The notes below the pieces were generated by a model, which saw only the letters and a list, made by a program, of their open reading frames with translations, searched no databases and was not told the DNA's origin. A DNA stretch of 64,000 nt from Candidatus Methylomirabilis sp. (GTDB lineage Bacteria > DYJV01): positions 1,846-65,845 of the forward strand of contig DYJV01000003.1 of the NCBI GenBank assembly GCA_020722945.1, given 5' to 3'. Positions 56,116 to 59,272 of the stretch are shown here, piece after piece. The position numbers and the translations under genes are program-made. Position 1 is the first letter of the stretch, and the number at the start of each line of letters is the position of its first letter.

Positions 56116-58632
56116 TTATGTATGGAGAAGATCTGTCTCATACAAAAACTCTTGAAGTCTCATCTCAATATCATCAGGATTGGCATTTATTCTTGCAACA
56201 CCCATCTCTATAGCTTTTTTGGCAACTGCTGAGGCAACTTTTATAGGAACTTTAAGGTCTAAACCATTTGGGATAATGTGATTCGGAGATAATCTACAAA
56301 GTGCAAGTTTTGAAATTGCCTCTGCAGCCTCTATTTTCATCTCATCATTAATCTCCTTTGCTCTTACATCAAGAGCACCTCTGAATATTCCTGGAAAAGC
56401 AAGACAGTTGTTTACCTGATTCGGAAAATCTGAACGACCAGTAGCTATAATCTTCGCACCACCAGCTTTTGCTTCCTCTGGCATTATCTCAGGGGCAGGA
56501 TTGGCAAGAGCAAAAACAATAGCATCCTTATTCATACTCTTAACATGATCTTTTGTAAGAAGATTTGCTTTTGAAAGACCTATAAAAACATCAGCACCCT
56601 TAATAACATCATAGATAGTGCCCTTCTCCTTATTAAGATTTGTCACTTTAGCCATTTCATCTTTATAAGGATTCATACCTTCAGCCCTACCTTCATAGAT
56701 AGCTCCATTTGTGTCACACATAATAAGATTCTTGCACCCTGCTTTAAGTATTAATTTTGAGACAGCAGTTGCCCCAGCTCCTGCTCCATTTACAACCACT
56801 CTAACAGCATCAATTTGCTTATTTACTATTTTAAGAGCATTTTTAAGACCAGCCAAAACTACAATAGCTGTCCCATGCTGATCATCATGAAAAACAGGGA
56901 TATCAAGTAGTTTTTTTAGCTCTGATTCAACATGAAAACATCTCGGAGCAGATATATCTTCAAGGTTAATACCACCAAAATTAACAGATATAGCTTCAAC
57001 TGTCTGAATTATCTCTCTTGGATTTTGAGTTTTTATACATATAGGAAAAGCTTCAACTCCACCAAAGGTTTTAAATAGGAGTGCTTTACCCTCCATAACC
57101 GGCATACCTGCCTCAGCTCCTATATTTCCAAGTCCAAGAACTGCAGAACCATCTGAAATAACAGCAACAAGATTACTCTTACAAGTATATTCATAAACTT
57201 TTTCAATATCTTTTGATATTAGTTTGCATGTTTCTGAAGCAGTTTTAGAGGAGTAGAGAAGATTAAATATATATTTATCTCTTATTGGAAGTTTATTTTT
57301 TATCTCTATAACACCAGTATGTCTTCTGTGCAAAATAACTGATTCTCTATTTACATCAACTTTTTCATCAAATCTAAATCTTAGCTTCTCTTTACTCTCA
57401 AAGTTCTCTCCCTCATATAAAAGATTAAACAATCTTTTGGTAACAAGCTCAGGGTCTATATCTATCCTATTGATTTTACACTCTATGGCTTTCTTTGCTA
57501 CAACACCTGCAATAACAGGTGAAACACGAAAATCAAAAAGATCAGGAAGGATATTGATGTCATTTAGGTTGTCACCTACAAGAGCTGCCAAAGCCTCTGC
57601 TGCTGCAATTTTTATATCATAATTAATCTCAATTGCTCCAACATCAAGGATACCTCTCATAAAACCAGGTATTATAAGGGCTGATGTAAAGTGATTGGGG
57701 TAATCAACCCTACTTGTAGCAACTATCTTAGCACCTGCATCCTTTGCATCACGATAATTTATTTCAGGCTCAGGACTTGAAAGAGCAAATACAATAGGAT
57801 CTTTTTTCATCAATTTAATCATATCGTATTGGACAACTTTACCAATAGAAACACCTATAAAAACATCAGCATTCTTAAGAGCATCTTTTAACTCACCCTT
57901 TTCTTGAGAAATATTTATACTTTTTGATATTTCACTTTTAACCCAGTTCATATTGTAAGGTCTATCTCTGTAAATTATACCCTTATTATCACATAGAAGA
58001 ATATTTTTTATTCCGTAGTATAGAAGCAACTTTGTGATACCTATCCCAGCAGCACCTGCTCCATTTATTACAACTTTTATTTTATCTTTCTTTTTACCTA
58101 TTATTTTTAGAGCGTTGATTAAGGCAGCAAGAACAACCATAGCATTAGCATCTTGGTCTCCATGAATAACAGGGACAGATAGACATTTTCTCAACATATC
58201 TTCAATTACAAAACAGTTAGGCGATCTTATATCTTCAAGGTAAAACCCTCCAAATGTAGGCTCAAGGTTCCTTATGCTGTCAATAATACTATTTTCATCT
58301 TTACCTTTAATAGCAAGGGGTAGTGCATCGATATTTGCAAATGTCTTAAAAAAAACAGAGTAACCCTCAAGCATAGGTATAGCACCGGATGGAGTAACAT
58401 TACCTATCCCAAACACAGATGTCCCATCTGAAATTATTCCGATAGTATTGCCCCTGCATGTAAGTTTGAATGACTCAACACTATTTTTTTCAATCTCTCT
58501 ACAGCACTCAGCAACTCCTGGTGTATATACCAAACTCAAAATAGAGCTATCTCTCAATTCTACTTTACTATTTATACCTATAAGACCTCTAAATTTTTTT
58601 CTCAATTCAAGAGATGTTTTTTCCATTTTCAT
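56116..58632 (-). CDS. NAD(P)-dependent malic enzyme, tandem two-domain fusion
   Basis: Two ~410-aa malic enzyme units. C-unit has MEGKALLFK, NLEDI, HDDQHGT, GAGAG, PNQVNN. N-unit has YTPGV and GAGAAG but degenerate core motifs. Confidence 0.92.
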   Translation of the reverse strand: MKMEKTSLELRKKFRGLIGINSKVELRDSSILSLVYTPGVAECCREIEKNSVESFKLTCRGNTIGIISDGTSVFGIGNVTPSGAIPMLEGYSVFFKTFANIDALPLAIKGKDENSIIDSIRNLEPTFGGFYLEDIRSPNCFVIEDMLRKCLSVPVIHGDQDANAMVVLAALINALKIIGKKKDKIKVVINGAGAAGIGITKLLLYYGIKNILLCDNKGIIYRDRPYNMNWVKSEISKSINISQEKGELKDALKNADVFIGVSIGKVVQYDMIKLMKKDPIVFALSSPEPEINYRDAKDAGAKIVATSRVDYPNHFTSALIIPGFMRGILDVGAIEINYDIKIAAAEALAALVGDNLNDINILPDLFDFRVSPVIAGVVAKKAIECKINRIDIDPELVTKRLFNLLYEGENFESKEKLRFRFDEKVDVNRESVILHRRHTGVIEIKNKLPIRDKYIFNLLYSSKTASETCKLISKDIEKVYEYTCKSNLVAVISDGSAVLGLGNIGAEAGMPVMEGKALLFKTFGGVEAFPICIKTQNPREIIQTVEAISVNFGGINLEDISAPRCFHVESELKKLLDIPVFHDDQHGTAIVVLAGLKNALKIVNKQIDAVRVVVNGAGAGATAVSKLILKAGCKNLIMCDTNGAIYEGRAEGMNPYKDEMAKVTNLNKEKGTIYDVIKGADVFIGLSKANLLTKDHVKSMNKDAIVFALANPAPEIMPEEAKAGGAKIIATGRSDFPNQVNNCLAFPGIFRGALDVRAKEINDEMKIEAAEAISKLALCRLSPNHIIPNGLDLKVPIKVASAVAKKAIEMGVARINANPDDIEMRLQEFLYETDLLHT

Positions 58633-59129
58633 TGTTTATCATCCTTTTAATGCGTTTTTAAAAAATCAAGTGAGAAAATTACATTTTATCAATTAACTAA
58701 AGCAAATTAAATATTTGAAAGATTATTCATATTAAAACCATAAACATTCATAAAAAATATGAAAGCAACAAGCATACCACAACAACAAGAAGAGAATAAA
58801 TTTAAAACTACCTGTAATTATTAAAAACATTAACTAAATGCAAAAAATATAAAATCTTTTATAGTGAGAGATTACAACAGTAGTATAATTTTTTCATCAA
58901 AAGATATTTTTGAATTAACTGTTTCAAGTATTGAAACAAAATAGAAATACCAAATTATAATTCTCAACCAGATCAAAATATCATTTTATAAAAAATTTTT
59001 TATTACTCTACATTAAGAGCAGGTGGATTAAACATCGATTAAATTATTAAGAATAAGGGAAATAGAGTTAAATTATTTAAAATTTTAAAAATATTGGGAA
59101 ATTTTGCTATAATAATAGCCAAACACATC

Positions 59130-59158
59130 TTGACATTCAAAAATTTTTAATATATCTA
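59130..59158 (+). promoter_or_regulatory. Candidate promoter for yebC-ruvCAB
   Basis: Perfect TTGACA at 59130 with a weak -10 (TATATC/TATCTA) 15-17 bp downstream. Confidence 0.4.
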
Positions 59159-59272
59159 TTTCTCTCTTTTATTTTATTAATGAGCAGTTTATTATCTATC
59201 TGCTTAAACAAACTACTCCAAACATAAAAATTATATTACTTTTTTTCTTTATATAAATATATAGGAGGTTCT

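Follow-up and report, generated by a model that had tools for sequence, protein, structure and literature searches.

A double malic enzyme in Candidatus Methylomirabilis as a probable single-chain pseudo-heterodimer with one composite active site

The stretch of DNA studied here (the window) comprises 64,000 nucleotides of contig DYJV01000003.1 from Candidatus Methylomirabilis sp. (assembly GCA_020722945.1, forward-strand positions 1,846 to 65,845) and carries on its minus strand, at 56116..58632, a gene of 838 codons plus stop whose product consists of two malic-enzyme units joined in a single chain, which we call the double malic enzyme. Malic enzymes are textbook enzymes of the malate–pyruvate node, and the usual prokaryotic classes are small, large and hybrid. 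From the residue pattern of the two units, its conservation among relatives and the predicted fold, we consider it likely that the two units form a pseudo-heterodimer within the single chain, with one composite active site.

Two malic-enzyme units in one chain

The Pfam families malic and Malic_M each match two stretches of the protein (128.1 and 124.9 bits against cut-offs of 23.1 and 23.5), no phosphotransacetylase (PTA) domain is found among its Pfam matches, and the two units align to one another with 175 identities over 404 residues (43%, E = 7e-121). These results bear out an earlier note on this DNA, made from the sequence alone, which had taken the protein for two malic-enzyme copies and not for the malic enzyme–PTA fusion MaeB. 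The NCBIfam models for MaeB-type enzymes (NF009501, 647.8 bits against a cut-off of 1178) and for malolactic enzyme (NF041582, 94.3 bits against 850) both stay below their cut-offs.

The N-terminal unit (N-unit; residues 1–408, 57409..58632, minus strand, as are all features of the gene given below) has a complete fold around what appears to be a catalytically dead body: its alignment with the Phytoplasma enzyme 5cee, made for this unit alone, runs end to end (E = 4.9e-96), and its predicted local distance difference test score (pLDDT) is mostly above 90. Its hook, LVYTPGVAECC (residues 34–44, 58501..58533), identified by motif and family conservation, contains Tyr36, the proposed catalytic Tyr. 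The alignment to 5cee places the substitutions of this unit on the catalytic Lys, the HDDQ motif, the Asn of the ANP motif and the NN pair. Tyr91 (58360..58362) stands at the catalytic Lys position of EGK, turning the motif into EGY; Gly158 replaces the triad Asp within HGDQ (157–160, 58153..58164), where the metal-ligand Asp159 is intact; and in SSP (285–287) and PNHFTS (312–317), at 57682..57780, the nicotinamide-side and substrate-side Asn residues are gone. All the motif changes that the earlier note had listed are present and map to these positions. The metal ligands Glu133 and Asp134 persist as well, as do the Rossmann dinucleotide motif GAGAAG (191–196, 58045..58062) and, by alignment, Asp215, Arg224 and Lys232 (57937..57990), the equivalents of D233, R242 and K250 of MaeB.

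A linker of residues 409–424 (57361..57408), with low pLDDT at 411–424, leads into the C-terminal unit (C-unit; residues 425–838, 56119..57360), whose motifs and superposition on 5cee indicate a catalytically complete body. Within 56407..57087 lie its motifs LEDI, HDDQ (582–585), ANP (710–712) and PNQVNN (737–742) and a catalytic set made up of Lys516, Glu558/Asp559, Asp583/Asp584, GAGAGA (616–621), Asp640, Arg649, Lys657, Asn711 and Asn741/Asn742. The C-unit hook, LLYSSKTASETC (458–469, 57226..57261), had been described as decayed, which holds for its TPGV part but not for its Tyr, since Tyr460 is intact and a Tyr is also found here in 114/123 full-length relatives. In canonical form, the catalytic triad exists in this protein only as a composite of Tyr36 from the YTPGV of the N-unit with Lys516 and Asp583 of the C-unit; neither unit alone has all three canonical residues, and from the site on the body of the N-unit the Lys, the triad Asp and three Asn residues are missing. 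When 5cee is compared with the whole 838-residue protein (E = 2e-121), the phmmer alignment runs through query residues 2–51 and then jumps to 477–814, that is, through the N-unit hook and then the C-unit.

An AAGGA ribosome-binding site lies ~10 nt 5' of the ATG, the GC content is even along the gene, and no other malic-enzyme gene was found in the 2.51-Mb genome. In one public run that holds the gene, a separately assembled contig of 5,673 bases matches 57089–58900 without differences and spans the unit junction; this run may be the window's own source, so that the contig does not count as independent support. The junction between the N- and C-units is not an assembly join: an assembly artefact, which the earlier note had weighed and doubted, is ruled out by the matching contig together with the family-wide layout and the same-family genomes described below. 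In the same run, position 56800 differs by T>C and a variant bubble of low depth (4–38 versus ~425) occurs at 57028–57118, both within the C-unit coding region and both consistent with minor strain variants in the sample.

Reciprocal conservation across the family

A search of 5.8 billion proteins returned at least 120 matches of 815–906 residues with 97–100% query coverage and 50–74% identity. The fused gene is present in 3/3 genomes of the window's own family (70–74% identity), and two genomes of the same order gave single-unit matches only. Among the carriers are a cultured Thermomicrobium isolate, Sphaerobacteraceae, Chloroflexia, Methylomirabilota, Nitrospirota, Desulfobacca, Desulfobaccales and Desulfobacteraceae, together with a Brocadiales record, so named phyla with doubles comprise Chloroflexota, Methylomirabilota, Nitrospirota, Desulfobacterota and others. 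Public records name the members either "NADP-dependent malic enzyme" or "malic enzyme-like NAD(P)-binding protein".

With a hidden Markov model based on 49 single-unit enzymes, we divided all retrieved proteins into their units and inspected the key columns. The pattern is reciprocal in 120/123 full-length doubles, with a YTP hook and a non-canonical body in unit 1 and a canonical body with a non-YTP hook in unit 2; the exceptions are a protein whose two hooks both have YTP and the two representatives P0122 and P0138, which are described below and left out of all counts that refer to 121 proteins. The hook pattern Y[TS]PG[VI] occurs in 121/121 first units, 1/121 second units and 96/109 single-unit enzymes, and the exact YTPGV is found in every first unit of this set (121/121) and of a second, non-overlapping set (99/99). 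In the second set 97/99 doubles fit the reciprocal pattern, and the other two have canonical hooks in both units with an N-body that still reads as dead. Complete doubles were present in 43 of the 90 genome loci examined, all 43 of them reciprocal, three probably being the same genomes fetched twice. Whether homologs conserve the reciprocal pattern, a check that the earlier note had suggested, is thus answered in the affirmative in all three samples. An earlier genome-collection scan gave 2 doubles among 80 loci, and the genome-collection scan with full-length alignment, which used generic patterns, returned single-unit enzymes only.

The catalytic columns are all invariant in the C-units of full-length doubles. 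Mean pairwise identity (1500 random pairs) is 0.61 in the hook region of the N-units versus 0.43 in that of the C-units, and 0.55 versus 0.67 in the body, and between the unit envelopes lie a median of 28 residues (range 20–45). The window protein fits the definition of the family, with ~815–970 residues, a first unit that has YTPGV and a G-G-G-D-R-K nucleotide signature and is without the triad Asp, and a second unit with the full catalytic set and a non-canonical hook. Its Lys-to-Tyr exchange at EGK is restricted to P0001–P0009, the window's own clade, and P0271, a near relative, is missing two metal ligands too; by these residues, decay of the N-site appears to be further along in the window's clade. 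As a separate observation, N-unit residues 11, 19 and 54, all within the exchanged N-terminal arm, are fixed across the family (R 96%, G 99% and S 96%); their counterparts in C-units and single enzymes are His (98% and 83%), Glu and variable, respectively.

In a tree of 97 rows, all 29 N-units form one group (Shimodaira–Hasegawa-like approximate likelihood ratio test, SH-aLRT, 98) that joins with the C-units, and no "single" rows come within this union apart from two that resemble fragments; the same subclades recur in the N- and C-halves, and the window protein clusters inside the double family with both of its halves. A tree of 45 rows splits N-units (bootstrap/SH-aLRT 100/100), C-units (98/94) and single enzymes (97/93). 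The N-units are the faster-evolving, with a path from P0001 to P0041 of 1.13 versus 0.74 for the C-units. From this we infer a single origin of the double family; because both trees are unrooted, the sister relation of N- and C-units follows from the split and is unproven.

Among cluster representatives at 50% identity, 23 relatives of ~480–1136 residues carry a complete canonical second unit behind a first unit that is recognizable over its first 60–260 positions or otherwise degenerate. The first-unit Tyr is kept in 22/23 of them (21 as YTP, one as YSP), and the second-unit hook Tyr is found in only 2/23, versus 114/123 full doubles; a plausibly placed GxGxx[GA] is missing from the N-part of 20/21 examined. 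Selection in these eroded relatives thereby appears to hold on to the arm, although the counts are not independent because of kinship: 17/23 fall, as several groups, on the side of the doubles where the tree parts them from single enzymes. One cluster, P0125, has 12 members of 781–812 residues from several sources, so these are real proteins, and ESM Atlas clusters of 710 and 729 residues still superpose on the window-protein model over residues 2–838 (679–685 aligned), so the erosion is largely at the sequence level. Since the second-unit Tyr is present alongside an intact N-body and lost as that body erodes, there is a hint that full doubles still make some use of the second site. The series of ~480–812 residues comprises P0125–P0129, P0132, P0133, P0136, P0147, P0149, P0152, P0157, P0167 and shorter forms, with a first unit reduced or unrecognizable beyond the YTPGV arm and a second unit lacking its own hook Tyr. 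In one 710-residue ESM Atlas cluster the commonest known phylum is Ciliophora (11 members with a phylum), which could reflect transfer to ciliates or contamination.

Two full-length proteins depart from the common layout. In P0138 (848 residues, its cluster on 35 contigs) the layout is mirrored, so that the unit with active body and dead hook precedes the one with YTPGV and a dead body, which suggests that the order of the units is not essential to a composite-site logic; the protein also has an extra N-terminal extension of ~78 residues. In the free tree both of its units fall together among single enzymes (SH-aLRT 95). An independent origin is unproven, as approximately unbiased tests reject neither placement of the dead unit with the N-clade (p = 0.33) nor placement of the active unit with the C-clade (p = 0.216), and no relatives of P0138 were found outside its own 90% cluster. 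P0122 (860 residues, a cluster representative) lacks the Tyr in both hooks (SAPGI and ATPGV), has two non-canonical bodies and yet groups with the double family in trees; it may have left malic-enzyme chemistry altogether.

One further candidate, a 1323-residue frame with two matches, proved to be two adjacent genes for a 453-residue malic enzyme and a 751-residue MaeB. No convincing family of unfused, stand-alone N-units was found: of 143 further proteins, nine are single units with a non-canonical body, several of them marked as partial at the source.

The gene itself is monocistronic. Its convergent neighbor encodes asparaginase II, and yebC-ruvC-ruvA diverges from it across a 640-bp AT-rich gap (58633–59272), in which GC falls to 0.26–0.29 in overlapping 1-kb windows. 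Rfam and tRNA scans of the window gave no match, the former with the gap included, and promoter-like sites in a scan of the window were no commoner than in shuffles. No RNA dataset is listed as a holder of the gene. None of the six neighbors in the window recurs beside the double malic-enzyme gene at the 16 loci examined. The genome also carries one Ldh_1_C-family gene and two Lyase_1-family genes.

The composite site and the nucleotide pocket of the N-unit

The accessible parts of two structural papers describe how a partner subunit completes the site. In MaeB of B. bacteriovorus the opposing protomer supplies the catalytic Tyr, Y52' (Harding 2021), and in the malic enzyme of E. histolytica (EhME) the triad is formed by Tyr65 (within 65-YTPGV-69), Lys120 and Asp193, with the Tyr65' hydroxyl 2.8 Å from NZ of Lys120 of the other monomer and with Glu168, Asp169 and Asp194 as metal ligands (PMC11944484). 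The EhME authors call this entangled dimer interface inherent to prokaryotic malic enzymes (PMC11944484). Both enzymes confirm the premise from which the earlier note had argued, that in small malic enzymes the Tyr of the partner completes the active site.

We propose that the double malic enzyme derives from this arrangement. In an ordinary small malic enzyme, two identical subunits swap their N-terminal arms, each placing the Tyr of its YTPGV into the partner to give two sites per dimer; an ancestral duplication and fusion would have frozen such a dimer into one chain, whose two sites then diverged. The arm of the N-unit, with Tyr36, would reach into the C-unit body, which would supply Lys516, Asp583, the metal ligands Glu558, Asp559 and Asp584, the Asn residues 711, 741 and 742 and a pocket of the nicotinamide adenine dinucleotide phosphate (NADP) type, and this composite would be the one working site, carrying out oxidative decarboxylation of malate. 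The reciprocal site, for which the N-unit would provide the body and the C-unit the arm, would be catalytically dead, with Tyr91 for the Lys, Gly158 for the triad Asp and its Asn residues gone, and the N-unit body would persist as a scaffold for the arm and for a dimer-like interface.

An AlphaFold2 model computed from a family alignment of 39 sequences and no templates has a mean pLDDT of 91.8 and a predicted template modeling score (pTM) of 0.91, with pLDDT below 50 only at residues 1–3, 411–424 (the linker) and 834–838; an ESM Atlas model of the identical sequence has a pTM of 0.90. We compared the AlphaFold2 model with the Protein Data Bank by Foldseek and re-aligned the best 1000 chains to it. 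Each of the 17 entries for small or hybrid arm-swapped malic enzymes fits a single contiguous unit, which is the C-unit for 13 of them and the N-unit for four. The fit of 5cee to residues 427–814 (1.0 Å over 386 of 387 residues, Z 39.3) implies that the C-unit arm is modeled in the extended, swapped pose. The large, non-swapped enzymes, by comparison, align in all 31 entries over 336–390 residues (Z 26–30) within a range that starts at 21–23 and ends at 835–838. Since ~380 aligned residues cannot fill a range of 817 residues, and sequence order leaves room only for an early and a late piece, this points to superposition on the N-unit hook plus the C-unit body, the geometry that a composite site requires. 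The structure prediction that the earlier note had called for thus yields a confident model with the large non-swapped enzymes fitting the range of N-hook plus C-body, and with reciprocal conservation and the eroded N-bodies that keep their hook it lends support to the single composite site that the note had proposed.

Of the alternatives, we regard as the most improbable that the C-unit is self-sufficient through Tyr460 and the N-unit an evolutionary leftover or an unrelated regulatory appendage. Tyr460 is indeed present here, as is its counterpart in most relatives, but the surrounding hook is non-canonical in 120/121 second units, set against the canonical hook of most single enzymes; the eroded relatives drop the second-unit Tyr and retain that of the N-unit; and the C-unit arm of the model lies on the extended, swapped arm of 5cee. 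Pairing of units between chains, so that the N-arm enters the C-unit of another chain in a dimer or polymer of doubles with one site per chain, is also unlikely, if less so. The linker is flexible at 20–45 residues and some small malic enzymes are tetrameric, according to the accessible text of PMC11944484, yet two separate single-chain models (pTM 0.90–0.91) place the units against each other, and the fusion is most simply seen as the fixing of an intramolecular pair.

Several points nevertheless weigh against the composite-site proposal, or limit it. The fold search reports the first and last aligned residue only, so that the assignment to N-hook and C-body rests on length and range, and AlphaFold2 was trained on swapped malic-enzyme dimers, whose geometry it may reproduce by likeness. 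Across the 123 full-length doubles, moreover, the first unit still has its catalytic Lys in 80 and its metal ligands in most (Glu in 120, Asp in 100), and the second-unit hook Tyr is present in 114, so the second site is less dead family-wide than in the window protein and may hold a function beyond the composite-site model. The same three features favor the idea that both sites work, the altered N-unit site with another reaction or substrate. We think this very improbable: two of three triad residues are gone in the window protein (Tyr91 and Gly158), the first-unit triad Asp survives in only 4/123 doubles and the last Asn of the NN pair in 1/123, and P0271 lacks two metal ligands.

While its chemistry seems lost, the N-unit body has been selective in what it has given up of its cofactor pocket. 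In MaeB, NADP is contacted by GAGASA (207–212) and D233, its 2'-phosphate by R242 and K250, and its nicotinamide by N300 and V330 (Harding 2021, from the accessible text). We mapped these residues by alignment, in which the chain index equals the number in the paper plus 11, with E45 and Y52 in agreement: D233 corresponds to the Rossmann Asp, R242 and K250 to the Arg and Lys of GR..MN..K, N300 to the Asn of ANP and V330 to the Val of PNQVNN. In the N-units of the doubles the three Gly residues (121/121), the Asp (121/121), the Arg (120/121) and the Lys (121/121) are all kept, and the six-residue signature G-G-G-D-R-K is found in 99/99 N-units of the second set, whereas the nicotinamide-side Asn of ANP is present in 24/121 N-units versus 121/121 C-units. 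New here is this invariant adenosine 2'-phosphate half of the N-unit NADP pocket. Judged by these residues, the N-unit has shed the half of the pocket that serves chemistry and kept the half that holds the adenosine 2'-phosphate, so that NADP(H), or an adenine nucleotide related to it, is probably still bound here in a structural or regulatory role. The suggestion of the earlier note that the dead site might serve as a nucleotide sensor gains support from this pattern.

The invariance of the nucleotide motif could, conversely, reflect fold stability alone. It is possible, though we lean toward a retained ligand, that the composite site exists as proposed and that the N-unit body is a pure scaffold without ligand, its Rossmann residues kept for folding and for the interface; the absence of a plausible Rossmann motif from the N-part of nearly all the eroded relatives examined would fit such a role. 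The Lys equivalent to K250 is harder to explain in this way, as it contacts the 2'-phosphate, has no obvious role in folding and is invariant in the dead units of both sets (121/121 and 99/99) but variable in C-units (106/121) and single enzymes (87/109), and conservation of the GxGxxG region in N-units (0.72) is no lower than in C-units (0.67).

Returning to the composite site with a ligand-binding N-unit, we tentatively put forward a joint reading, which we hold to be less probable than not by some distance, in which the dead N-unit serves the enzyme as its own sensor of NADP(H) and the family records a stepwise reduction from a two-site homodimer. As a sensor, the pseudoenzyme N-unit would tune the single site to the redox or nucleotide state through the shared arm-exchange interface. 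As a reduction series, a swapped homodimer with two sites would have given way to a fused pseudo-dimer with one, and this in turn to short forms that keep little of the first unit beyond its Tyr arm. If the latter were true, it would amount to a bacterial route to a one-chain active site that is independent of the eukaryotic malic enzymes.

Comparison with known malic enzymes and pseudoenzymes

No description of a tandem or double malic enzyme was found in the open-access PubMed Central and bioRxiv literature, and the accessible part of the latest classification paper on malic enzymes describes hybrid enzymes only. The double family would add a fourth malic-enzyme architecture, in carriers of environmental importance (Methylomirabilota, Nitrospirota, Brocadiales, Desulfobacterota and Thermomicrobia). 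It offers a natural experiment on obligate arm-swapped dimers among the small malic enzymes, a clean system for the role of a retained cofactor pocket in a pseudoenzyme domain, and a single-chain, single-site scaffold of possible use in enzyme engineering. Annotation of active sites and stoichiometry by domain counts would overstate the double twofold.

The small-type malic enzymes (5cee; TM0542 of T. maritima, 1vl6; PH1275 of P. horikoshii, 1ww8/2dvm; E. histolytica, 3nv9) have the same fold as each unit of the double and share with it the logic of arm exchange and a partner Tyr. They are, however, homodimers of ~390–490-residue subunits with two equivalent sites, whereas in the double the partners are fused, are 43% identical and hold one full catalytic set between them. 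MaeB (6zng, 9krw and 8jzo) resembles the double in its length of ~750–840 residues, its swapped small-type core and its possession of a second, enzyme-derived domain, the PTA domain, which is not known to have PTA activity. That domain binds acetyl-CoA as an allosteric inhibitor, according to the accessible text of Harding 2021. MaeB forms symmetric dimers with two sites and carries this PTA domain, which the double lacks; the extra module of the double is instead an N-terminal dead malic-enzyme copy, proposed to be the donor of a catalytic residue.

In the large malic enzymes (human ME2, the pigeon enzyme and E. coli MaeA, 6ags), the Tyr and the body lie on one chain, as they do in the double. 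Their Tyr helices fold back intramolecularly, which the accessible text of PMC11944484 attributes to sequence insertions, whereas one-chain delivery of the Tyr in the double would use a whole second unit as its carrier. Beyond the malic enzymes, the closest likeness is to the prozymes of trypanosomatids (deoxyhypusine synthase, S-adenosylmethionine decarboxylase (AdoMetDC) and PRMT1), in which the live paralog needs a dead one for its activity, the role of the latter being proposed here for the N-unit; for deoxyhypusine synthase, the accessible text of PMC3663545 gives a 3000-fold rise in activity for the heterotetramer of impaired and dead subunits. Prozymes are separate gene products of eukaryotic parasites, in contrast to the double malic enzyme, a bacterial protein that carries its dead paralog in cis by fusion and in which this paralog would, as proposed, contribute a catalytic side chain directly to its living partner.

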